Below, one piece after another: positions 26,178 to 39,160 of a stretch of DNA of 53,064 nucleotides. The notes under the pieces are model-generated. The model was given only the letters and a program-made list of their open reading frames with translations. It made no database searches and had not been told where the DNA came from. How positions within the stretch are numbered: position 1 is the first letter of the stretch; each line of letters opens with the position of its first letter. Position numbers and translations under genes: made by a program. Source of the DNA: Candidatus Woesearchaeota archaeon (lineage in GTDB: Archaea > Nanobdellota > Nanobdellia > SCGC-AAA011-G17 > CAYFGV01); the NCBI GenBank assembly GCA_964342845.1, contig CAYFGV010000002.1, forward strand, positions 1 through 53,064, given 5' to 3'.

Positions 26178-26277
26178 NNNNNNNNNNNNNNNNNNNNNNN
26201 NNNNNNNNNNNNNNNNNNNNNNNNNNNNNNNNNNNNNNNNNNNNNNNNNNNNNNNNNNNNNNNNNNNNNNNNNNNNN
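26178..26277. other. assembly gap (100 N)
   Basis: N-run in sequence. Confidence 1.
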
Positions 26278-26359
26278 ACAGTACAACCAGGAACGGAGAC
26301 TTGCTTAACTTCTGAGATCGAAACGAGATCAGGTGAACCAAGCCCCTATGATCGTCCAG
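26278..26359 (-). rRNA. rrf: 5S rRNA, 5' about 80 nt (3' end lost in gap)
   Basis: Minus strand GACGATCATAG...CACCTGATCTCGTTTCGATCTCAGAAGTTAAG...GTACT matches 5S hallmarks; TATA about 20-25 nt upstream; 5' end approximate. Confidence 0.92.
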
Positions 26360-27516: not shown

Positions 27517-28062
27517 TTATTTTCTATTCTTCCCAACAACATAAACCTCTTTACTTCCAGATTTAGAAGCCTTAGGTTTAACAACTTTAACAAATTCAAA
27601 TCTTTTTTTAACCTCTTTCAACAATTCTTCAAAACCCTCACCTTGAAAAACCTTCATCAAGAAATTTCCTCTCTTTTTCAAATAAAAATCTAAAAGTTCC
27701 AAAACTCTTAAATTTAATTCTACGCTTTTATCTTGATCTAAACTTTTAACTCCTGTTTTTTTAGGAGAAACATCAGAAATAACAACATCAAATTTACCTT
27801 TCAAAACTTTAAAAATATCTTCCTTTAAAATATCTAACTTATAAAACTCTAAGTCTGTTTCAACTTCTCTAATATCAACACCAACAACTTTAGAACAAAC
27901 TCTGCTACAATATTGTAACCAACCTCCAGGATAACTTCCTATATCCAAAACCTTATCCGAAGAACCAATTAAACTTTGCTTTTTATTAATCTCTTTAAGT
28001 TTATACACACTCCTGGATTTAAATCCTTGTTTCCTTGATTTTTTAGTGTAATGGTCTTTCAT
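27517..28062 (-). CDS. rlmE: 23S rRNA 2'-O-methyltransferase RlmE (FtsJ/RrmJ)
   Basis: SRSVYKL, DIGSYPGGWLQ, VVISD, KVFQG, S..EVY (K-D-K-E tetrad). Confidence 0.94.
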   Translation of the reverse strand: MKDHYTKKSRKQGFKSRSVYKLKEINKKQSLIGSSDKVLDIGSYPGGWLQYCSRVCSKVVGVDIREVETDLEFYKLDILKEDIFKVLKGKFDVVISDVSPKKTGVKSLDQDKSVELNLRVLELLDFYLKKRGNFLMKVFQGEGFEELLKEVKKRFEFVKVVKPKASKSGSKEVYVVGKNRK

Positions 28063-28400
28063 TTATACCCGAACAATTTATTATACTTCTTATGATTGAC
28101 TATTTTCAAAACAAATAAAAAAATATCTATTCTGCTTCCTTCAATAGTATACAACATCCTCCAATAATTAGACAACTCAACTCTATATAAATTCCCTATA
28201 CCAATTTTTTTCAGTTCAGCAGGAATCAACTCTTTTTTTATAGGATTGCCAAATTGAGGATTTTCTTTCAAAATGCTTTTCATCCTTTCAATAGAATTTA
28301 AAATAGTTCTTGCCTCTTTATCTTTTCTCTTCTTTAATTCAATATAGGCCTTTCTAGCCTGTCCTTTCAATAAAATTCTAACTTCTTTTCCTAAAAACAT
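28059..28400 (-). CDS. RelE/ParE-like toxin
   Basis: Basic 113 aa, NPQFG, NLYRVEL..YWRMLYTI, H..Y...FGY. Confidence 0.7.
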   Translation of the reverse strand: MFLGKEVRILLKGQARKAYIELKKRKDKEARTILNSIERMKSILKENPQFGNPIKKELIPAELKKIGIGNLYRVELSNYWRMLYTIEGSRIDIFLFVLKIVNHKKYNKLFGYK

Positions 28401-28401
28401 C

Positions 28402-28701
28402 TTATATTTCCAAACTATCTTCCATCATTTTCTTTAAATGATTTGACTCAGAATAAATCCACTGAACTCCTTTGGGCCCGTAGATTATCTTTCCACTTCT
28501 CCAAAGATACACTAAAATAACTTTAAGTGTTTGGTGCATTACTTTCTTAGGTAATTTCTCCTTTAGTTCAGAAATCTTCATCGGAAGATCCCTATTCTTC
28601 TTTAACACATCTTCTACCATCAACACAGTATTTAGATTGGGATATCTATTTACTTTATTCTTCTTCTTTTCAATAAGTTCAGTTTGAGTTAATTTTAACA
28701 T
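28402..28701 (-). CDS. putative wHTH antitoxin/regulator paired with RelE-like toxin
   Basis: PNLNTVLMVE...LPKKVMHQTL..IL.YL..SGKI; immediately upstream of toxin. Confidence 0.6.
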   Translation of the reverse strand: MLKLTQTELIEKKKNKVNRYPNLNTVLMVEDVLKKNRDLPMKISELKEKLPKKVMHQTLKVILVYLWRSGKIIYGPKGVQWIYSESNHLKKMMEDSLEI

Positions 28702-28743: not shown

Positions 28744-29595
28744 CTATTTCAAATGTAACTCAACAACATCCCCTTCTTTTAAAACATGATTCAAGCCAAC
28801 ACTCATCCCGTCATGCTTAGCAGAAGAGCCCCAAATCCTAGCATATTTAAATTTTTGAATAAAATCCTTATGAACATGTCCAGCCAAATCTCTAACACTC
28901 TCTCCTTTCTTCAAAGAAACAGGAGGATCATCTTTTTTCTTTCCAGGACTCTTAGTATAAACATAAATCAAATCCAATCTCTTCCATATTTTCTCTTTCA
29001 AATCAGAAAAATCTAAATCTTTATTTTTAACAACTAAGCCTTTAAAATTAACACCTCCTTTCTCTAACTCAGAAACAATGAAATTCTTAGAACTATCTCT
29101 ATCAACAACTATAACTAAATCAGCAGTTCTAATAATCCCTAAATATAAAGGACCTTTACCTTTATCAACAAAATCTTCAACAATCGCAGGAATTTCAACA
29201 ACTTGAATCTTAATTCCTTTATAATCCATAGTTCCAACTTCTGGTAATTTTGTACTAAACTCATAATCAGCAATCAAAGGCTTAGCATTTGTCAGTTTAC
29301 TCAAAACATAACTTTTCCCAGAATTAGTCTTTCCAATCAAAATAACCTGGGCAGCTCCTTCTTTTTTAACACCTATCTGGAAACCCTTTCCTTTTCTTTG
29401 TTGTTTTTCTTTAGCTAATAAAGCCTTAAGCTTAGAAATTTTTTGTTTTATTTCAACCCTAAGATTCTCAGTTCCTTTGTGTTTTGGCACTGTAGACAGC
29501 ATCTCTTGTAAAGCTTCTAATTTAGCAGGAATAGTTTCAGCTTCAAAAAACTTCTTTTCAGCATTCTCATATTCATGTGTAACATTCGTTGGCAT
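28744..29595 (-). CDS. DRG/OBG-family GTPase with TGS domain
   Basis: MPTN, PKHKGTE, GKTNSGKS P-loop, VYTKSPG, HVLKEGDVVE. Confidence 0.93.
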   Translation of the reverse strand: MPTNVTHEYENAEKKFFEAETIPAKLEALQEMLSTVPKHKGTENLRVEIKQKISKLKALLAKEKQQRKGKGFQIGVKKEGAAQVILIGKTNSGKSYVLSKLTNAKPLIADYEFSTKLPEVGTMDYKGIKIQVVEIPAIVEDFVDKGKGPLYLGIIRTADLVIVVDRDSSKNFIVSELEKGGVNFKGLVVKNKDLDFSDLKEKIWKRLDLIYVYTKSPGKKKDDPPVSLKKGESVRDLAGHVHKDFIQKFKYARIWGSSAKHDGMSVGLNHVLKEGDVVELHLK

Positions 29596-29627
29596 ATTAA
29601 TATAAAAACTAATTTATTTATATTTGT

Positions 29628-30524
29628 TTAGTTTTCCATATATTTCTCTTTTATATACTTAATAAAAGGCCTTTCATTATATTCTATCTGATATTTATCT
29701 AACACATCATAATAATCTTCTATTTCTTCTACCTTAATATCAATTAAAGGATATCCTCTTTTCCATAATATCCAATTCATAAGCAACCTAGATAATCTAC
29801 TATTTCCATCCACAAATGGTTGTATTGAAATAAGTTTTAAATGAATAAGTGCAGCTAATTCTAAAGTATGTAATTTCCTACATTCTGAACTATACCATTT
29901 AAAAAAATTATCAAGCTCTTTATCAATCTCATTCCATTTGGGAGGCACATAACTAGTTCCACCAATCTTAACATTCCTTTTTAGCTCACTTCTGAGTTTT
30001 CCAGCAATTTCATCATCCACTCCTAAAAATAATATTTTATGGAGCCTCTTTATAAAACCCAAATCTAATTTTCCTTTATACTCTGTTATAGCTACAACAC
30101 CTTTTTCGTGATTTTCTAATTCTTTAATAGTTTTAAGATTTTTAAAATTCTTTGGAATAATCCCCTCCTTTAATATAAGATATGTTTGTCTTAAAGTAAC
30201 ATCTACTCCAGACAACTTACTACTATCATAAGTATATCTTATCATAAAATTCTCAAAATTCTTCTTTTTCTCTAATTGACTTAATTTTTTAATCTCTTGT
30301 TCATATTTCTTTCTTTTTCTTTCAATATCTTCAACATCTTTTGCAGAGAAATACCTAAATCTTTCTCCTCTAATTTCCTTGAGAAAATCTTTCTTTAATT
30401 CTTCTAATACTCTTTTTGACGGTAAATTCTTACCTACATACTTTGTTTTTTGAACCACTTTGTTACCCTTCCTAGTAGAGTGTCCCAATACATAATAATC
30501 CTTAATTTTTCTTACAAATACCAT
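29628..30524 (-). CDS. Fic-domain protein with variant motif
   Basis: IQPFVDGNSRLSR versus canonical HPFxDGNGRxxR. Confidence 0.9.
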   Translation of the reverse strand: MVFVRKIKDYYVLGHSTRKGNKVVQKTKYVGKNLPSKRVLEELKKDFLKEIRGERFRYFSAKDVEDIERKRKKYEQEIKKLSQLEKKKNFENFMIRYTYDSSKLSGVDVTLRQTYLILKEGIIPKNFKNLKTIKELENHEKGVVAITEYKGKLDLGFIKRLHKILFLGVDDEIAGKLRSELKRNVKIGGTSYVPPKWNEIDKELDNFFKWYSSECRKLHTLELAALIHLKLISIQPFVDGNSRLSRLLMNWILWKRGYPLIDIKVEEIEDYYDVLDKYQIEYNERPFIKYIKEKYMEN

Positions 30525-30532
30525 CTAAGTTA

Positions 30533-30573
30533 TATACACTACACTTATTTAAAGCTTTCGTTTATACACTACA
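30533..30573 (-). promoter_or_regulatory. fic promoter: 11-bp direct repeats TGTAGTGTATA flanking BRE/TATA
   Basis: tatacactaca at 30533-30543 and 30563-30573 around CGAAAGCTTTAAATA. Confidence 0.6.
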
Positions 30574-30634
30574 AATATTTTTAATTATACAGACTCCTAA
30601 AAAAAGAAATAGAACTATTTAAAGTTTTTTTATT

Positions 30635-31120
30635 TTAATGCGCTTCAAGTAACTCCTCTATTTTTATCTTTTCTCCTCTTCTAATATCTAAGTAAACATT
30701 TCGATGATCATCTCTCTTATATCTAAAGCCGTTTAGCCCTGAATGATCTCCGACCCAGTTATAAATGTCTTTTGCAAGAGCATTATACGTTTCTTTAGAA
30801 ATATCCCTAAATGAACACCTAAAATTTATAGTCTTTAATAAAGGCTCTCCTAATCCTGAAATCATTTCATCTGTAAGAGACCCATCATGTATAATTTGAA
30901 CATTATCGCGACTTGTACCCAACTCACTAACTGTTCTCGCAAGGCTATCCATACAACCATAAATATACGTTCCTAATTTTTTCCTCATCTCATCAATTCT
31001 GGGATTTATTCTGTCTTTGAGTAATCCTATTTCAATCATTTCTTTTTTTGCAACATCTTCAAGAATAGAATATATAAACTCGTCACTTGGAACAAACCCA
31101 TTAGAGCCATTTTCTCCCAT
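30635..31120 (-). CDS. hypothetical protein
   Basis: Start moved to MGENG (31120) with TATA about 20 nt upstream. Confidence 0.6.
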   Translation of the reverse strand: MGENGSNGFVPSDEFIYSILEDVAKKEMIEIGLLKDRINPRIDEMRKKLGTYIYGCMDSLARTVSELGTSRDNVQIIHDGSLTDEMISGLGEPLLKTINFRCSFRDISKETYNALAKDIYNWVGDHSGLNGFRYKRDDHRNVYLDIRRGEKIKIEELLEAH

Positions 31121-31166
31121 ATTTTTAAATACCAATCTAACTTTATAAACCTTATTAATTAAAAAT

Positions 31167-31910
31167 CTACTTCTTACTAATCTTCTCAAAAGCTTTCAAA
31201 ACTTCAACAGGAGTAACTAACACAATAGTTGTATTCTTATCACTGCTTATATCATTTATAGTTTGTAAAGTCCTTAAATGCAAAGCACCATTAGCTTTAG
31301 ATAATCGTACAGCAGCCTTACTTAAATTCTCAGAAGCAATCACTTCTCCTTGAGCTTTAATAATTACAGCCCTTTTTTCTCTTTCAGCCTCAGCTTCCTT
31401 ACCAATAACCCTTTTCATCTCACCAGGTAACTCAATATGTTTTAAATCAACACTAACCACCTTTATTCCCCAAGGATCAGTTGCTTTATCTACAACAACT
31501 TGAATTTTTTTAGAAATTTTTTCTCTTTCACCTAATAATTCATCCAAAGTTACCTCTCCAACAGTATCTCTCATTGTTGTTTGAGCTAACTGAGAAACAG
31601 CATAATTAAAATGTTCAACTTCTAAAATAGCATGCTTAGCCTCTGAAATCTTATAATACAAAACAGCATTAACATTTACAGAAACATTATCTTTTGTAAT
31701 AGCATCTTGCTGAGGAACATCTACTGCTTTTACTCTTATATCAACTCTTGTCCAAGCTTGCACAATAGGAAGAACCATTTTTAAACCAGGCTCCATCATC
31801 CCAGAAAACTTTCCTAAAGTAAATTTAACTCCTCTTTCGTATTCTTTAACAATCTTTAAACTAGCTAAAACAAATAAAATAACTATAATTAAAAATGTTG
31901 TCCAAATCAT
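31167..31910 (-). CDS. SPFH/stomatin (slipin) family protein
   Basis: KEYERGV.F.LG, ITKDNV, AQTTMR, EAEREKRA, LRTLQT. Confidence 0.95.
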   Translation of the reverse strand: MIWTTFLIIVILFVLASLKIVKEYERGVKFTLGKFSGMMEPGLKMVLPIVQAWTRVDIRVKAVDVPQQDAITKDNVSVNVNAVLYYKISEAKHAILEVEHFNYAVSQLAQTTMRDTVGEVTLDELLGEREKISKKIQVVVDKATDPWGIKVVSVDLKHIELPGEMKRVIGKEAEAEREKRAVIIKAQGEVIASENLSKAAVRLSKANGALHLRTLQTINDISSDKNTTIVLVTPVEVLKAFEKISKK

Positions 31911-31970
31911 ATTTTTATTAAAAGTTATAGCTTCTTAATAAATGTTTTGGATTGAAAATTAGATTATTTG

Positions 31971-31998
31971 AGGGGAACTAACAGGAATTACATACAAT
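31971..31998 (-). repeat. dif-like site A: ATTGTATGTAA TTCCTG TTAGTTCCCCT
   Basis: 11-6-11 layout with TAA-N6-TTA core; near-identical to site B. Confidence 0.6.
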
Positions 31999-32105
31999 TT
32001 TTTGGGCAAAATACCTGAGGGCAAGAATTAGTTTTACCACTAATAAGTTACTATAAAACGAAAGCTTTATATACTAGTTACTCTTATCTTAATTAGTGAT
32101 ATAAA

Positions 32106-32573
32106 ATGAAACTTAAAAGAATAATCATGGGGGGACTTGTATTAGCTGGTCTCTCTACTTCACTTGGTTGTGATGGAAAGGAACAAAAACCCTTAGATGC
32201 AATTGCAGGTGTACCTGAATTACCAGCATCAAGTGTTGGGGATACAATTACAGGTGTACCTAAGTTACCAGCATCATTTATCACAAAAAACAACTATTCT
32301 ACTGAAGGCTATGTAAGTTTTGTATTAGATTTACCTGATGGAAAAGAAGTACTTTGCAGCTATAATGGACTTTATCAGACTAATAAAGTTGCCGATATTG
32401 ATGCTGTGGTAAAAGATGCCCATTTAGATAAACAGGCAATTGGTGTTTATGGAAAATTGGTTGGAAATAGAATGAGTTTTCTTGAGGTTAACCACCCGGA
32501 TTTTGACAGAATAAAATTAATGCATAATTCTAAAGGTGCTAAACATCCAGAGTATCAGAAATCTTCTTTTTAA
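32106..32573 (+). CDS. putative lipoprotein with short internal duplication
   Basis: SLGC lipobox-like; IAGVPELPAS / ITGVPKLPAS repeat. Confidence 0.65.
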   Translation: MKLKRIIMGGLVLAGLSTSLGCDGKEQKPLDAIAGVPELPASSVGDTITGVPKLPASFITKNNYSTEGYVSFVLDLPDGKEVLCSYNGLYQTNKVADIDAVVKDAHLDKQAIGVYGKLVGNRMSFLEVNHPDFDRIKLMHNSKGAKHPEYQKSSF

Positions 32574-33136
32574 TTAATGATACTGGGGCTGTTCTTGATG
32601 TAATTTTGCCTAAAAAACTCTAAAGTTTTATAACTCGACACTAATGTACGAATCTTTCTAAACATCTCTTCTCTATTCTCTGGTGTTAAATCAAAAATAG
32701 TAACATCTTTCCTTTCTCTAATTTCATCAATTAATGGATGAGAATATACTCTTGAAAAAGTCCCCAAAAAATGATTTGGTGCATCAAGATAAAGCCTTAC
32801 TAAATCTTGAAACTTATCTGCATATAATTCCATTTGACCAATTTCATCAATATACAACAATTCATCATCAAAATTAAAAAATGGAGGAAGAATTTTATTA
32901 AATCCAGAAACATCAACAAAATAACGAGAAACCTTAATTGACGAATCCATATGAGTACTTGATAGCAATCTTCTTTCTCCTGTTGATGTCACTATTTCAA
33001 ACCCTGTTCTTTGACCATCCTCTCTTATTTCTTTTGTAACAAATCCCTTTTTACGAACGCTTAAGCTATCTAAAACTCTTTCAAGTAACGTGCTTTTTCC
33101 ACTTTTTGGAACGCCTGTTATTAATACATTAGACAT
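32570..33136 (-). CDS. nucleoside-triphosphatase (NTPase_1/THEP1 family)
   Basis: ITGVPKSGKST, GFVTKEIR..G.R.GF, IDEIGQMEL. Confidence 0.92.
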   Translation of the reverse strand: MSNVLITGVPKSGKSTLLERVLDSLSVRKKGFVTKEIREDGQRTGFEIVTSTGERRLLSSTHMDSSIKVSRYFVDVSGFNKILPPFFNFDDELLYIDEIGQMELYADKFQDLVRLYLDAPNHFLGTFSRVYSHPLIDEIRERKDVTIFDLTPENREEMFRKIRTLVSSYKTLEFFRQNYIKNSPSIIN

Positions 33137-33253
33137 AAATAACTCAAAATTCAAGCGTTTTAAAAAACTTTCCTTTTTCTTAGAAATTACTTCTTAGCTG
33201 CACTTTCTTCAGTATGCAAAAAATATATAAAGTTGCAAAGATAGAACATTCAT

Positions 33254-34000
33254 ATGGTAATAGATAATGATTTTTCTGGATCTTCTGAATATTATGGCTC
33301 GTTAGGATTTAATAAAAAATCACATGATAAAAAAATCAATTTTTACAAAAAGATACTAACCAAATATAAAGTAAAATCGGTTCTTGATTTGGGATGTGGA
33401 AATGGGTTATATTTATTCCCATTAAAAAAGGCTAAATTTGATATTGAAGGTTTAGATATAAGTAAAAAAATGTTAAGTGAAGCAAGAAAAAAGAGTAAAT
33501 CAACAAAACTTTATTTACAAGATATGTCCAAATTCAAAATTAATAAAAAGTATGATTCTATAATCTGTTTAAATTCTTCATTAGTATTATTACCAAATTT
33601 CAAGCTAATTGAAAAAACAATAAAAAAATGTAGTGAGCATCTAAAAAACAAAGGAATTTTACTCTTAGATCTTCCAAATCATAAGAAAGAGATTGAGGAA
33701 GCTAATTTTGAACAAACTATTGGGACATCTAAAGTCTCTGGAGGAAGAATTGATACAATCTACAGAGATTACAAAAAAGGGAATAAATGGGTAACAGATT
33801 GGTTTGGATTTGTAAAAAAAGGAAAGAAATTTTATCAGTTTAGGGAACATTATGAAGAATTAATTTATTCACCAAAAAAACTTGAACAATCATTAAAGAA
33901 GAATAAGTTTAAAATAATTAAAATCTATGGAACCAGGCAAGGCGGAAATTTTGATTCTAATACTTCCTTTAGACGATTCTATATCTGTCAAAAAATATAG
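33254..34000 (+). CDS. class I SAM-dependent methyltransferase
   Basis: VLDLGCGNG, GLDIS..ML, QDM. Confidence 0.92.
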   Translation: MVIDNDFSGSSEYYGSLGFNKKSHDKKINFYKKILTKYKVKSVLDLGCGNGLYLFPLKKAKFDIEGLDISKKMLSEARKKSKSTKLYLQDMSKFKINKKYDSIICLNSSLVLLPNFKLIEKTIKKCSEHLKNKGILLLDLPNHKKEIEEANFEQTIGTSKVSGGRIDTIYRDYKKGNKWVTDWFGFVKKGKKFYQFREHYEELIYSPKKLEQSLKKNKFKIIKIYGTRQGGNFDSNTSFRRFYICQKI

Positions 34001-34044
34001 TTATCAGAAATTCAACGGTCTCTTCGGTCGGTCGCCTATCAGCT

Positions 34045-34072
34045 CAGGAAACTAACAGGAATTATACACAAT
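34045..34072 (-). repeat. dif-like site B: ATTGTGTATAA TTCCTG TTAGTTTCCTG
   Basis: Same orientation and same spacer as site A. Confidence 0.6.
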
Positions 34073-34087
34073 AGGAAAAAAGCCAAA

Positions 34088-34363
34088 CTAATATTTTCTT
34101 GAATCCGCTATACGCCTGAATTTTTCAGATGCCATAAAAGGATCGTCAATTTCACGATTAGCCAAAGTGTCCAATATAGTTCTTGTTGCAGCATTTGCAC
34201 AATCTTTATATAATTGAATGGTTCTTTGAAACATATCCTTATATACTTCCCCACATAATTCGTCATACAAGGGCATCAATTCTTCTGCACTCCCAATATC
34301 TGTTTCGCATGCGACAACAATTTTTTCTAGAATTTCATATAATTGAATCAATTTTTTGTTCAT
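34088..34363 (-). CDS. hypothetical helical protein
   Basis: 91-aa ORF between inverted dif-like sites B and C; own TATA. Confidence 0.6.
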   Translation of the reverse strand: MNKKLIQLYEILEKIVVACETDIGSAEELMPLYDELCGEVYKDMFQRTIQLYKDCANAATRTILDTLANREIDDPFMASEKFRRIADSRKY

Positions 34364-34429
34364 TATTTTATAGAAAGATTAACTGACTTTTAAATCTTTT
34401 GGGCTTTTCCTACTTCCTTCATTCCATTC

Positions 34430-34457
34430 AGTATGTATAACACCAATTAGTTTTAAA
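34430..34457 (+). repeat. dif-like site C: AGTATGTATAA CACCAA TTAGTTTTAAA
   Basis: 11-6-11 layout, inverted relative to A and B. Confidence 0.55.
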
Positions 34458-34513
34458 GAGGAATGCTTGCAGTTCCTTCGCAACAGATAGTCTTTTTCTT
34501 CGAAAAAGAAAAT

Positions 34514-35068
34514 TTATAGGAGTTCTTCAATCTCCTGAGCAAATTGTAGATAACTTCTTAATTTGCTTGCCTGATCAGGAAATTCTCTTTGTACTACCTC
34601 AACTAATGGACCTGGCAATAAAATTCCTTTAAGTTTTTGTGTTGGAACAACTAAGTATCTTTCTATTTCATAATTTTGTATTGTTTTGGGTGTAGCTACA
34701 AATAAACCCCATCCCCTATCCCAATAGCCTCCAACTTGTATGCTTTCAGTAGATGCCAAATTTCCATAATTTTCTATACCTACATTGTGTTTGAGTTTCC
34801 TATTCAAAAGAATTTGGCATAAAGTAGATGAATCTTCAGTTCCATGGGCGATTAAATTGTCACAGGGTACACTTTGCGAATTGTATCTGCAAGCCACTTC
34901 CGTCAAATATCTTCTTTCATCAGCAGTATCTTGAAATTCTATTTTATGCCAGAGAGGTCTCCTTAAACGTCCATATACTATTTTATCTTTAGGTACTGCT
35001 CCCAAAATTCTTTTACTGATTTCTTCAGCTTCTGTACTAATTGTATGTACTCTTCCCTGATGTGTCAT
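34514..35068 (-). CDS. hypothetical protein
   Basis: 184-aa ORF with extended promoter at 35091-35116. Confidence 0.6.
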   Translation of the reverse strand: MTHQGRVHTISTEAEEISKRILGAVPKDKIVYGRLRRPLWHKIEFQDTADERRYLTEVACRYNSQSVPCDNLIAHGTEDSSTLCQILLNRKLKHNVGIENYGNLASTESIQVGGYWDRGWGLFVATPKTIQNYEIERYLVVPTQKLKGILLPGPLVEVVQREFPDQASKLRSYLQFAQEIEELL

Positions 35069-35143
35069 AAAGTTGAATAACTTGAGAATATTTATAAACC
35101 TTCCTATTCTACCACTACTAACAAATTACTAATAAAAAACTAA

Positions 35144-35259
35144 TGGGCCCACCCGGATTTGAACCGGGGATTCTCACCTTTCTCAGCCCTTTTCCGCAAA
35201 CGCTTTTTTTAAAAGGGTTTCTTGTAAGGGTGATGTCATAACCACTAGACCATGGGCCC
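35144..35259 (-). tRNA. tRNA-Val (TAC) with 43-nt intron at canonical 37/38 (intron 35180-35222)
   Basis: GGGCCCA/TGGGCCC acceptor, TCACC-CT-TAC-A...A-GGTGA; bulge-helix-bulge CTTA/TGAG with CAA and AAA bulges. Confidence 0.95.
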
Positions 35260-35310
35260 CAACTAAAAAATAAACTAAATCAAGCATTTATATAATTTAT
35301 GATTTAAAAT

Positions 35311-35856
35311 TTATTCTAAATAACCTTTAAGTTTAGAATTAAGTTCATCATAAAGCTTAGAGTCATTTCCCTTAACAATACCAGCATATTCTTGGCACTT
35401 CTCTAAACATTCTTCTTTATAACTCTCCGCCCTAGAACCAGTAATCTTATCAACCACTTTACTTAAATTATAATAAGCCAAACATAAATTTGCATAAACA
35501 ACATCCTGAGCACTACAATCTTTACCATCCCACTTAACTCTATACCTATCATTTAAACCCAAAGCAAATAAACTATCACTTGTGTTTTCTATTCTTTCTA
35601 AACTCTCTAATCTGTCAAAATAATTAAATGGCTTTTCAGAATCATCTATCAACTTTTTGTTATAATCTTCAAATAATTTCATTAAACCACTGTAATGATC
35701 TTGTATCTTACTTTGTCCTTCAGTAAGAGAAGAACTACAAGGTGCTTCCTTTAAAAACCCTTCAAGACTTTTTCTATTTGAATCATCTTTAACACATCCA
35801 GCCACAGCTAAAGCTCCTCCAGCAACCAATAAAGCCAATAATTTTGATTTTTCCAT
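35311..35856 (-). CDS. putative lipoprotein
   Basis: LAVAGC lipobox; GGAGG RBS before ATG 35856. Confidence 0.7.
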   Translation of the reverse strand: MEKSKLLALLVAGGALAVAGCVKDDSNRKSLEGFLKEAPCSSSLTEGQSKIQDHYSGLMKLFEDYNKKLIDDSEKPFNYFDRLESLERIENTSDSLFALGLNDRYRVKWDGKDCSAQDVVYANLCLAYYNLSKVVDKITGSRAESYKEECLEKCQEYAGIVKGNDSKLYDELNSKLKGYLE

Positions 35857-35890
35857 ATTTTTTAGCAAATAACCTCCTTTTTAAATCTAA

Positions 35891-36895
35891 CTAATTTCCA
35901 AATTCCTCTTCATAAAGATTTAACTCAATATCCCCATATTCAAAACCATAGCCTCCATCAACCCCAACACCCTCTTCGCTTACTTCAACCCCAACACCAT
36001 TTACTATCTCTTGCCCAAACACAGGTTCAAAAGAAATCTCAGTATCAGTAATAATAAATTCCACCTCTCCGTTTTCAGTCCAAGTAGTCTCCTCAACTGC
36101 CTCATTAAAAATATTTAGCCCAAAGTCTGAACCACCAATAGATAAGATAATACCTATTTCCTCTTCATTCTTAAATCCAGGCATCACAGGAACTAAGGTT
36201 GCACTACCCAACCCCTTAACTGAAATCTCTATCCTCCCTACTTTAAAATCATAACCTGCTTTTGGAGAAATATCAATATTCTCCACAACAAAATTGATCA
36301 CGTCAGACATCGAAATAGTTCTACTTCCTCCACTATGCATAACACTGGGCTCAAAACCAGCCATCCTAAACTCTTCTAAAGTTTTTTCAGGCAAATCCAA
36401 ATTAAAACCAGACAAAGGAACACCTTGACCATTCTTAAAACTCTCTTCAATAATTTCCACAGGAACTTCCCCAGTAGGATCCACATACTTCATAGGATTA
36501 TCTCTAACATAAACATAAGAACTAAATAAAACATTATAAACAGGATCTACAGATATAAACCTACCTAATGAAGCATCATAATATCTAGCTCCATAATAAT
36601 ATAAACCAGAAGAATCTTTCTCTTTACCTGTATAACTATATTTTTCTTCTCCTTCAGAATTAAAAGACTCCCCAAAAGGATAATAATCAGAAGAATATTC
36701 TACACCGCCAGAAGAATTACTAACAATAGCATTACTACCTAAATGATCTTTATGATAAAAATAAGTCTCACTTCCTTGTGTCTTAGCAATCAACCCATTA
36801 GGCCCATAAGAATAAAAAACATATTCAGAACCATCAACTATAGCACTAGCTACCAAAAAAATAGCCAGAATTAAGATTATCTTGTTAATAATCAC
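35891..36895 (-). CDS. short secreted RHS repeat-associated core protein
   Basis: YHKDHLGS, DYYPFG, YTGKEKD.SGLYYYGARYYD..LGRFISVDP, NPMKYVDPTG. Confidence 0.92.
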   Translation of the reverse strand: MIINKIILILAIFLVASAIVDGSEYVFYSYGPNGLIAKTQGSETYFYHKDHLGSNAIVSNSSGGVEYSSDYYPFGESFNSEGEEKYSYTGKEKDSSGLYYYGARYYDASLGRFISVDPVYNVLFSSYVYVRDNPMKYVDPTGEVPVEIIEESFKNGQGVPLSGFNLDLPEKTLEEFRMAGFEPSVMHSGGSRTISMSDVINFVVENIDISPKAGYDFKVGRIEISVKGLGSATLVPVMPGFKNEEEIGIILSIGGSDFGLNIFNEAVEETTWTENGEVEFIITDTEISFEPVFGQEIVNGVGVEVSEEGVGVDGGYGFEYGDIELNLYEEEFGN

Positions 36896-37012
36896 TTATT
36901 ATTGGGTACATTCCAATCTTTAAATACTTTTATTCCATCTTTTTTAAAAAAAGTTCCATAATTATCTTTAGAAATCAAATAAATTCCATTTAAAGAAAAA
37001 AAACACAAAAAA

Positions 37013-37708
37013 CTACTTCCTTAAAATAATCACATTTCCTCTTCCTTTCTTAATTCTCTTAACCATTCCTTTATCTTCTAGCTCTGTTATCAACAAACTA
37101 ACCTTAGCCTCTGATAAAGGCATCATCTTCTTTCTTACCTCTTTTTGAGTAATCCGCCCTTTACTCTCCTTAATAATTCCTAAAACCTTATCCATATCTT
37201 CATCACTTTCTAAAACTTCTTTTTCTAATTTTTCTTCAGAAGGCTTTCTTCTTTTCAAATAATAAAAAAACAACACTCCAACCCCAAAAACAATCAAAAT
37301 CAAAACCAAAAGTACATAGTCAAAACCAGCTTCTTCTTCCCCAAAATCAAAATCATCTTCATCTATTGTATCATTTTCAACTAAATCATCAAAAAAACCA
37401 TCAGAATACCATAAAATCAAATGAATAACAGAGTCCCCTTCTCCTTCAATCTCAATTGTTTCATTAGTATAATACAAACCATCTGTAGAAACAGCAGTTA
37501 GAATATAGCTACCTTCGCTTAACTCAAAACTATATTCTTCTCCTTCATCAACAACCATAACTTGTTTAGGAACAGAATCAATCTCAACTATAGCACCTAT
37601 CTCTTCTAAAGTATCCCATGCATAGATTTCACCATAAATAGTAGCTCCAGAACTAACACCAACTAATAAAAAAAACATTAAAAAATAAATTACTCTTTTC
37701 ATATACAT
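37013..37708 (-). CDS. membrane-anchored protein with extracellular domain and C-terminal wHTH (COG2512-like)
   Basis: Signal peptide, beta domain, TM, GRITQKEV...SEAKVSL.ITELE.KG..KRIKKGRGN. Confidence 0.85.
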   Translation of the reverse strand: MYMKRVIYFLMFFLLVGVSSGATIYGEIYAWDTLEEIGAIVEIDSVPKQVMVVDEGEEYSFELSEGSYILTAVSTDGLYYTNETIEIEGEGDSVIHLILWYSDGFFDDLVENDTIDEDDFDFGEEEAGFDYVLLVLILIVFGVGVLFFYYLKRRKPSEEKLEKEVLESDEDMDKVLGIIKESKGRITQKEVRKKMMPLSEAKVSLLITELEDKGMVKRIKKGRGNVIILRK

Positions 37709-37784
37709 ATTCTTAAAACTAACCTTTAAATAGATTTCTAATTCACGAAAATAAAAATATAATTTTCAACACAAGAACACACAA

Positions 37785-37822
37785 TAAAGTTTCGTAAAGT
37801 TTCATAAAGTATTTTTTAAAGT
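37785..37822 (+). promoter_or_regulatory. 10-bp-periodic TAAAGT(TTC) repeats overlapping the promoter of 37883
   Basis: TAAAGT at 37785, 37795, 37805, 37817. Confidence 0.6.
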
Positions 37823-37882
37823 ATCTTTATAAACAAACTATTCTAATATACATATACAAAAAAGAGGGAGGAGAAAATAAAA

Positions 37883-39160
37883 ATGAAACTAAACAAAATA
37901 TTTGTGCTGATAGTACTAGCTTTATTTGTATTTAGTGCAATGCCTGTAGAAGCTACAAGCCTAAAAGAATTAGACCAAGCTTTCTTAACAGAGTATAATT
38001 TAATAAAAGCTAAATATACTTCTGCAACAAGCGAGTATAAAACAGCAAGAGAACAATATAAGACATTTAAAGACAAACTGTCTCAATACAAAGACTCAGA
38101 AAAAGGAACAACAGTTTTTGATAGAACTCAAGAATTTTTAACTAATGCTTTAGAAGTTCTAGACACACATAACGACGTTTTAATCCATTGGGCAGAAAAT
38201 ATAGAAATGAGTGAAGATCTTAGGGAAAACATCTTAGAGGACTTAGAATACCATACAGAAAAACTAGCTGAGTTAAAACAAGATGTAGAAGGTGCAGAAA
38301 CTGTTCAAGACTTAATAACAGTAGCTAGGAGTATTAAAGACCACTACGATGATCAAAGAGTAGCTATTAAAAGAGTATCAGGTATTTTGCTTTCAGCAAG
38401 AGCTGATCATGTGCTTGCAAGAGCTGATAAATTATCAGAAAATCTACAAACTAGATTAGACGCAGTTGAATCTGATGCTGATAAAGTAGAAATTCAATCT
38501 TTGTTAGATGATTTTTCAACAAAAGTAGCTCTAGCACAAAGTAAATACGACAAAGCAAGAGAAACATACTCAAGTATTGACGACCCTTCAGAAGCTAATG
38601 AATTGTTCAACCAAGCAAATGAATTTTTCAAAGAAGCAAATGGCTATGTTTGGGAAGCAAGAGAGTCTCTTATCCAAGCAATAAGGTTGTACAGATCCCT
38701 TGTAGAAGATGAGTTTGAATTAAGCGAATTAACTACAGGAGTTAGTGCAGTATCAGTTCCAGACTCAGTTAGACTAAGAGGAACAGGAACACTAACAGCA
38801 TCAGGAGACGGTTGGGCTCAAATTTCTGGAACAGGAGATATAACACTATCAGGTAGCGGTTATATCACAGTAAGAGACCTTATGGGAGAAGGTTCAATAG
38901 AAACTGTAGGTTTTGGAGTTATAACTCAAGACGGTTCAAGCACAAGGTATGAAACTGAAGAAGGCGAAGTAGGAACAATAACAATTACAGATGCTAACTC
39001 TATCTCTGTTTACTTTTCAGGAACAGAACTTGAAGCAGAAGTTATTGGAACTGGCTCAGCACATTTCTACGGAAGTGGTGAGTACTGTGTTAACGGAAAC
39101 TGTGGTGATTGGCCAATTGGATTTGATGTAACTTCAGGAAACGACGGAATCCAAGAATAA
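37883..39160 (+). CDS. secreted coiled-coil protein with Gly/Thr-rich beta C-terminal domain
   Basis: Signal peptide (VEA), ~250 aa helical region, G.G.I...G repeats. Confidence 0.75.
   Translation: MKLNKIFVLIVLALFVFSAMPVEATSLKELDQAFLTEYNLIKAKYTSATSEYKTAREQYKTFKDKLSQYKDSEKGTTVFDRTQEFLTNALEVLDTHNDVLIHWAENIEMSEDLRENILEDLEYHTEKLAELKQDVEGAETVQDLITVARSIKDHYDDQRVAIKRVSGILLSARADHVLARADKLSENLQTRLDAVESDADKVEIQSLLDDFSTKVALAQSKYDKARETYSSIDDPSEANELFNQANEFFKEANGYVWEARESLIQAIRLYRSLVEDEFELSELTTGVSAVSVPDSVRLRGTGTLTASGDGWAQISGTGDITLSGSGYITVRDLMGEGSIETVGFGVITQDGSSTRYETEEGEVGTITITDANSISVYFSGTELEAEVIGTGSAHFYGSGEYCVNGNCGDWPIGFDVTSGNDGIQE

Follow-up and report, generated by a model that had tools for sequence, protein, structure and literature searches.

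Sites and genes at the locus

The locus lies in a 53,064-nt stretch of DNA from a Candidatus Woesearchaeota archaeon (contig CAYFGV010000002.1, positions 1 to 53,064, here called the window) and is examined as a candidate array of gene cassettes bounded by dif-like recombination sites. The source assembly (G000) comprises 573 kb in 28 contigs and is 84.8% complete; the sequencing runs containing the source DNA carry a marine label, the small-share runs X7-X9 being left out of this habitat reading. Three 28-bp sites, designated A, B and C, a partial site and a decayed site (D) are interspersed with the cargo genes (Table 1).

The letters and positions that an earlier, sequence-only reading of the window had given for A, B, C and the partial site were all verified exactly. 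A degenerate pattern drawn from A, B and C matched the window three times without mismatch and four times with up to two mismatches, against a mean of 0.96 in shuffled sequence, a comparison that is circular because the pattern was derived from the sites themselves. The whole 573-kb genome contains no strict match besides A, B and C, and a matrix built from these three scored them at 21.5-28.0 and the next-best position at 14.4. Over 29000-38000 a repeat finder picked up, of the sites, the A/B pair alone, the other repeats being AT-rich and attributable to chance.

Two of the gene labels in the sequence-only reading, NTPase_1 and methyltransferase, agree with Pfam, while that of lipoprotein has no counterpart in Pfam or NCBIfam. 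For orf91 the only match of near-equal length among 5.8 billion proteins was the protein itself, and no usable Atlas feature match was obtained.

Table 1. Sites, cassette parts and genes of the locus, in window positions
Feature	Position	Strand	Remarks
Site C	34430..34457	-	Left arm TTTAAAACTAA (34447-34457), spacer TTGGTG (34441-34446), right arm TTATACATACT (34430-34440); begins the orf91 cassette
Site B	34045..34072	-	Left arm ATTGTGTATAA, spacer TTCCTG, right arm TTAGTTTCCTG; score with other-genome matrix 29.9
Decayed site D	33177..33204	-	Left arm AGTGCAGCTAA (33194-33204); end of the 868-bp methyltransferase cassette; placed by positional homology to L260
Partial site	32022..32038	-	Left arm GGTAAAACTAA and spacer TTCTTG; right arm missing
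Site A	31971..31998	-	Left arm ATTGTATGTAA, spacer TTCCTG, right arm TTAGTTCCCCT; score 27.3
Insert of orf91 cassette	34412..34429	-	18 nt, purine-rich, ends AGT; bulged when the cassette ends pair
Second stem of orf91 cassette, start side	34398..34411	-	Pairs with 34073-34087; TATA-like box next to it
Second stem of orf91 cassette, end side	34073..34087	-	Pairs with 34398-34411
Insert of methyltransferase cassette	34016..34044	-	Approximate limits; homologous to the L260 insert; AGT changed to CGT, second stem decayed
orf91, orphan cargo, 91 aa	34088..34363	-	No family
Class I S-adenosylmethionine (SAM)-dependent methyltransferase	33254..34000	+	Pfam PF13649; antisense to the array; own TATA-like box
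NTPase_1 family cargo	32570..33136	-	PF03266, E 2.5e-40; NF010248 under cut-off
155-aa cargo gene	32106..32573	+	N-terminus probably lipoprotein-like; no Pfam or NCBIfam match
184-aa orphan gene	34514..35068	-	Stops 56 nt before the left arm of C; a weak right-arm-like stretch at 35111-35138 is the sole trace
tRNA-Val(TAC), 43-nt intron	35144..35259	-	ARAGORN with intron option, missed without it; about 700 nt away

Orientation of the sites

In the sequence-only reading C stood on the plus strand, inverted relative to B around orf91. Scored with a matrix trained on 43 regions around a subset of the matches in other genomes, the window being excluded, C reached 9.5 when read on the minus strand, as against -10.3 on the plus, and the spacer of the partial site fitted the minus strand only (+6.3 against -11.1). 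The spacer is polar: among 28 sites found with a spacer-blind matrix, none of them a seed, 27 spacers end in TG and 22 start with T. Because of this polarity C is read on the minus strand, like B, and the proposed inversion does not hold.

Neighbouring sites no more than 4 kb apart were co-oriented in 72 of 72 pairs, and a fixed matrix applied to other contigs gave 11 co-oriented pairs out of 11. With C on the minus strand it follows that A, the partial site, B and C are direct repeats, without the alternation of pdif-type modules. As judged from the sequence, the B/C "inversion" is a split palindrome made by the two ends of one cassette, and the matching gene-side flanks of B and C that had been pointed out earlier (34073-34087 and 34398-34411) are indeed present.

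Structure of the cassettes

The consensus site consists of a left arm ATTnnnnnTAA, a 6-nt spacer that is mostly T-N-N-N-T-G and a right arm TTAnnnnn with a C-rich end. A cassette runs in order through spacer and right arm, a purine-rich insert ending in AGT, a stem stretch of 12-15 nt, a gene in either orientation, the complementary stem stretch and the left arm of the next site.

The right arm at the start and the left arm at the end of a cassette tend to be complementary. The mean over 72 cassettes was 3.36 of five variable positions, with 21 perfect cases, as compared with 2.42 and 2.50 for arms of one and the same site, 2.25 when the pairing was reversed and 2.09 for random pairs, and none of 5000 within-locus permutations attained the observed mean. 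The independent set of 11 cassettes, from the fixed matrix on other contigs, gave 3.73 against 1.73 and 1.18. When all pairs were compared the right arm tracked the downstream flank (3.3 against 2.0 of 5) and the left arm did not. A second stem pairs the 14 nt before the left arm with a stretch 20-80 nt past the right arm; at least 11 of 14 positions matched in 26 of the 58 cassettes of at least 300 nt, against 0.6 by permutation, and in 4 of 8 cassettes of the independent set.

Thirty of 66 cassettes were well formed, and in 26 of these AGT stands directly before the second stem. The insert is 63% purine, with 45 GNA mini-hairpins on the site strand, 6 on the opposite strand and 8.1 in shuffled sequence. 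A cassette's own junction folded better than mismatched ones in 52 of 66 cases, and in 57 of 66 the fold of the site strand was better than that of the complementary strand, the latter count not being independent since the same features underlie it. The predicted junction fold has one arm, a one-sided bulge of 20-80 nt and a 6-nt apex. In the C-to-B cassette of the window the arms match at 4 of 5 positions, the 18-nt insert ends in AGT and the stem matches at 10 of 14 positions without gaps; the left arm of B, which is the end of the orf91 cassette, complements the right arm of C at 7 of 8 inner bases. The right arm of B is the start of the methyltransferase cassette and is complemented, again at 7 of 8, by the inner bases of the partial site.

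The longest open reading frame (ORF) of the 30 well-formed cassettes points in the same direction as the site in 16 and in the opposite direction in 14. TATA-like boxes precede every cargo gene in the window, just inside the stems, which fits the free orientation of the cargo; the cassettes thus appear to carry their own promoters. Some arrays contain cassettes of 70-111 bp without a gene, arranged in tandem (L024:9842-9994, L028:11804-12026 and in L023).

Distribution of the sites among related genomes

The strict pattern matched 6 of the 240 genomes of the order. Three of the five genomes other than G000 had clusters of related sites with genes between them; the matches in G121 and G162, both inside genes, were dropped as chance. 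A looser pattern, built partly from these clusters, gave 196 matches in 109 of the 240 genomes, against 26 matches in 23 genomes for the reversed pattern, counted by hand as a control. Up to 10 matches were found per genome, and 131 of the 240, the genomes being incomplete, had none with the looser pattern. Across the phylum a stricter pattern gave 35 matches in 24 of 401 genomes, other orders included, and none for the control. In the relatives 138 of 143 sites fell outside ORFs of at least 80 aa, against a non-ORF background of 22%, in support of sites at the edges of accessory-gene modules. Viral contigs gave no match to the strict site pattern and no enzyme of the recombinase clade described below, the best viral recombinase being 38% identical to it.

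Recombinase clade and anchor

As the sequence-only reading had noted, no tyrosine recombinase is encoded in the window. The single PF00589 protein of G000 is truncated where contig C18 ends. Three copies of a motif of about 13 nt with the core ATAAGTT-A/T-TTAG follow the stop codon of this gene (L001).

The recombinases next to arrays in other genomes are separated from the remainder by a score gap with a profile made from six of them. This clade is present in 66 of the 240 genomes (E < 1e-95), usually alongside a second, common-type XerA. A quick tree of 83 rows, with the group defined by score and omitting roughly half the remaining DPANN enzymes and the majority of those from bacteria, placed the clade on one branch with 100% support in the Shimodaira-Hasegawa-like approximate likelihood ratio test (SH-aLRT), apart from six bacterial IntI-like proteins and from the common DPANN XerA; the recombinase of G000 belonged to neither the array clade nor the main XerA group. 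The only other genome of the same family (G001) has, at the start of contig C7 (L092:1-935), a 300-aa recombinase that is sister to the clade with 88% support and is followed directly after its stop codon, at the contig end, by an anchor-like left arm.

The clade enzymes are 270-310 aa long and lack about 32 residues that are present in a bacterial IntI scoring 395 on TIGR02249; six of them reached 197-217 bits, in two stretches, against the cut-off of 265. Several pass the NCBIfam cut-off for archaeal XerA and the group scores near it. Among the matches listed, their relatives were mostly bacterial Xer genes, and the named archaeal records were from Woesearchaeota, Nanoarchaeota and Aenigmatarchaeota. 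Together with the gene content of G000 these names suggest a small DPANN archaeon as the host.

Among 39 clade genes selected independently of sites, 17 had a full site within 8 kb, as compared with 2 control loci, and the sites near them were upstream and co-oriented in 26 cases and downstream and convergent in 2. A site is present in 47 of the 66 clade genomes and in 62 of the 174 others, kin not being independent. Among the common-type DPANN recombinases inspected, not one lay within 1.5 kb of a site; for one of them a site was found at 4 kb. The sequence-only reading had looked to a XerA-type enzyme of the host; the sites adjoin this separate clade instead, and orphan arrays exist in G000 and in G035 (2 contigs, 94% complete), which has arrays and one common-type XerA only.

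Beside the clade gene in relatives lies an anchor in which a variable left arm is followed by a spacer, mostly beginning with C and without the final TG, and by a right arm of characteristic sequence. The anchor spacers differ from those of the cassettes and stay on the recombinase side whatever the left arm. Since the anchor retains its spacer under any left arm, the exchange probably falls between TAA and the spacer, and the spacers would not need to match.

No insert or anchor was found beyond site A, and no anchor or convincing left arm between A and 25500. A run of 100 N, a scaffold gap, lies at approximately 26180-26280, some 5.7 kb from A.

The methyltransferase cassette in a second context

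A metagenome scan with the methyltransferase segment gave 9 relatives, the closest on contig L260, with 87.7% nucleotide identity over 822 bp. The homology ends at the cassette limits; in L260 the ends are intact, the stem matches at 12 of 12 positions beside the arm, and the neighbours are different ones. One module is thereby found in two contexts. The alignment also points to the decayed site D in the window, which alone scores under the matrix threshold, and to cassette lengths of 868 bp in the window and 867 bp in L260. The earlier description of A and B as direct repeats around a block of three genes stands as to orientation; with site D inside it, the block comprises at least two cassettes.

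Contigs of four runs, two of which (X3 and X4) look like one data set, contained the host at a depth of 3-5 and a deeper methyltransferase copy about 88% alike, whose loose ends showed insert, AGT and stem on one side and stem and left arm on the other. A contig from another study covers B, orf91 and C unchanged.

Copies of the methyltransferase that are 82-87% identical at the protein level stand among core genes of other archaea without flanking sites (L261:703-1437 and L262:1231-1974), which suggests that this cargo settles outside arrays too. More distant homologues occur in or beside arrays elsewhere. Only two pairs of homologues could be compared from cassette to cassette for a change of direction: one pair had the same orientation and one was flipped but, at 50% identity, is too far apart to demonstrate inversion. 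Synteny based on the flanking SPFH gene matched 6 of 41 genomes and gave no related locus, and G001 has no site near its SPFH gene.

Neighbouring genes

The placing of the locus near tRNA-Val is right, the tRNA being an intron-containing tRNA-Val(TAC). The bases right after its 3' end complement the left arm of C at 8 of 8 positions, possibly by chance in a T-rich terminator. The 184-aa orphan gene between C and the tRNA is possibly an older cassette; the right-arm-like stretch beyond it was considered as a site, was weak and stayed unproven.

Beyond site A, at a distance of 1.4-3.9 kb, lie a ParE-like gene with a 99-aa partner (28059-28701) and a Fic gene (29628-30524). Distant homologues of the ParE-like pair and of the Fic gene are found in or beside arrays elsewhere (L028, L043, L102; L024, L030, L034), and the pair and the Fic gene may be relic cassettes. 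A left-arm-like stretch at the Fic stop (29611-29638) was likewise considered and stayed unproven. A second cluster of homologues of the 99-aa, ParE-like and Fic genes is present in G000 (contig C20:3286-5091), with no site detected there.

Within the lipoprotein-like gene two 36-nt copies that are 45 nt apart and 89% alike (32196-32276) encode a repeated peptide. The 12-mer TTGCCCTCAGGT adjoins a site both in the window (32010-32021) and at L016:3450-3461, in a different orientation relative to the arm.

Interpretation and alternative explanations

The locus very probably belongs, as an array of cassettes, to an integron-like system found in small DPANN archaea. The polarity of the sites, the cassette limits, the complementarity of the ends, the anchor, the link to the recombinase and the occurrence of one cassette in two contexts could all be demonstrated at the sequence level. 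The term "pdif-type module system" in the sequence-only reading was apt in so far as dif-like sites lie at the edges of mobile modules (138/143, and L260), and misleading in the alternating inverted layout that it implies. Recombination through folded single strands is favoured with more reserve. On folding of the insert-bearing strand the two cassette ends would together restore a single recombinase arm, with a T-G pair and a large bulge; one strand would be exchanged by the enzyme between TAA and the spacer without any need for matching spacers, replication would resolve the resulting junction, and new cassettes would enter at the anchor. The recombinase and the anchor are lost or unassembled in G000, and the locus as a whole is probably an orphaned, partly decayed array of this kind, recombined via folded single strands.

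Several observations weigh against this account. A good second stem is found in fewer than half of the called cassettes and is not associated with the arm match (13/15/13/17 in a two-by-two table), and the genome-wide all-pairs test fixed no side for the spacer; overlooked intermediate sites and decay may explain part of the poor second stems. Neither the clade recombinase nor the anchor was found in the 84.8%-complete assembly of G000. The I2 insertion, which serves integrons in handling folded sites, is absent from the clade, 22 of the 39 clade genes have no full site within 8 kb (many of them being at contig ends or having the anchor only), and 62 genomes have arrays and no full clade gene. 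The other four of the five closest methyltransferase loci lack the cassette frame, and the right arm of this cassette differs between the window and L260 despite the conserved insert. No excision, inversion or empty-site joint at A, B or C was seen in the four low-coverage contig sets, two of them apparently the same data and listed read joints with short sides being ignored; this is no evidence of absence because contigs drop rare variants. Kin are, moreover, not independent, and the p-values therefore overstate the significance.

A dedicated recombinase and array could also operate with cassettes moving as double-stranded circles, the split palindrome then being a scar of cassette making or repair, for example by template switching. 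At each junction stands an ordinary-looking duplex site of 11-6-11 layout, the IntI insertion is absent from the clade enzyme, spacers are uniform in some arrays (L028 and L039), and the right arm of B in the window matches the distant partial site better than its own site D; mobile elements that integrate by making use of Xer (IMEX), in the available parts of bioRxiv 2021.09.09.459576, can moreover integrate by one exchange followed by replication. The anchor and cassette spacers differ, however, and the fixed place of AGT (26/30) and the strand bias of the GNA mini-hairpins (45 against 6) look like selected features of a single strand, which makes double-stranded circles rather unlikely. Shuffling of pdif-like modules by the common host XerA between alternately oriented sites, one of them perhaps the chromosomal dif, would agree with the 11-6-11 layout, which is that of archaeal dif in the parts of PMC8371274 and PMC2958812 available, with the clade enzymes that pass the XerA cut-off and with the arrays of G035. 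It is nevertheless very improbable: none of 83 neighbouring pairs is opposed, the common-type DPANN recombinases inspected have no site within 1.5 kb and only one of them has a site at 4 kb, the sites are multiple, variable and patchy in contrast to a single-copy dif, and the only recombinase of G000 lies outside the array clade and the main XerA group alike. Use of the arrays by a host enzyme is conceivable all the same because G035 is nearly complete and has only the common XerA.

The sites might, finally, be transcription-factor operators or parts of small non-autonomous repeats, with the modules incidental. Forty-four sites have a divergent gene starting no more than 400 nt away, and for 24 of them the distance to the ATG is 47-80 nt; the window's TATA-like boxes stand directly inside the stems, and right-side flanks are common to several genomes. 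Against a factor binding at a fixed distance, which the sequence-only reading had named as a possible refutation, stand the same-strand start distances, which range from 22 to 395 nt; the covariation spans the gene and not the site, the sites are tightly linked to the recombinase clade and the anchor, and the two copies of the shared cassette are homologous only as far as the limits of the sites. An operator or repeat is thus hardly credible as the origin of the locus.

Relation to known systems

In integrons, including archaeal integrons and clusters of attC sites lacking integron-integrases (CALINs), as described in the parts of PMC9668308 and PMC4792948 available, the features shared with the present arrays are tandem co-oriented cassettes with complementary ends, an anchor (attI) by a tyrosine recombinase, likely one-strand exchange and arrays without an enzyme, integrase-less arrays being described in PMC9668308. 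A site of the attI type by the recombinase was found in relatives and not in G000. A folded attC recombines with a double-stranded attI and replication resolves the junction, which, together with CTX phage, is the analogue of the mechanism proposed here (PMC4792948, bioRxiv 2021.09.09.459576, both in part). The differences are that the recombinase here lacks the IntI-specific domain and falls below the TIGR02249 cut-off, that the sites are 28-bp and dif-like, that by inspection the fold has one arm and a one-sided bulge instead of the two-box attC hairpin with R and L boxes and a central terminal structure, and that the cargo, seemingly with promoters of its own, lies in both orientations, whereas cassette genes of integrons are generally one-directional.

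The pdif modules of Acinetobacter, which depend on XerC/XerD (PMC6449649, available sections), likewise have 28-bp 11-6-11 sites around accessory genes, a conserved inner palindrome, a variable spacer, toxin-antitoxin and Fic cargo, and modules in different contexts. Their sites are inversely oriented and served by host XerCD, whereas those described here are direct (83 of 83 pairs co-oriented), have split-palindrome ends and are tied to an anchor and a probably dedicated recombinase. The single Xer-family enzyme and the 11-6-11 site are also those of archaeal XerA/dif, although the dif of the excerpts of PMC2958812 and PMC8371274 is single-copy and conserved, while the present sites are neither and most clade genomes hold a common-type XerA as well; no skew switch was found in the window, G000 being in 28 contigs. 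IMEX such as CTX phage, as far as the available text of bioRxiv 2021.09.09.459576 and PMC4792948 goes, resemble the arrays in presenting a Xer site on a folded single strand and in tandem insertion at a dif-like target. They are phages or islands without a recombinase of their own that use host XerCD and dif, in contrast to cassettes of 0.07-3 kb with a dedicated recombinase clade, of which neither sites nor enzyme were found in viral contigs.

The system is apparently unpublished, the literature searched, with most subscription journals and supplements outside it, holding no description; some of the loci may be among the attC sites listed in the PMC9668308 supplements.

The chances appear even that the arrays represent a second, independently evolved capture platform of the integron type, in which a Xer-family enzyme without I2 inserts promoter-bearing cassettes through a folded strand whose two ends restore a single arm flanking a bulge of large size. 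Such a platform would occupy between a quarter and a half of one DPANN order, extend across the class and exemplify, in living form, the step proposed between Xer and integron integrase. The integron literature, in the portion of PMC4792948 available, ties single-strand cassette recombination to the I2 insertion and speculates on a Xer-like ancestor, and this question becomes testable, on short synthetic substrates, with an enzyme of Xer type that naturally accompanies cassette arrays and has no I2. A recombinase of small size without a requirement for spacer homology might, in addition, be useful as a tool. The window adds a cassette in two contexts and an example of the decay of an array after loss of its enzyme. 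Searches for integrons based on attC would probably miss such arrays. Few ways of gaining genes have been described for DPANN archaea, whose genomes are tiny, and the array system would give them a defined and widespread one.

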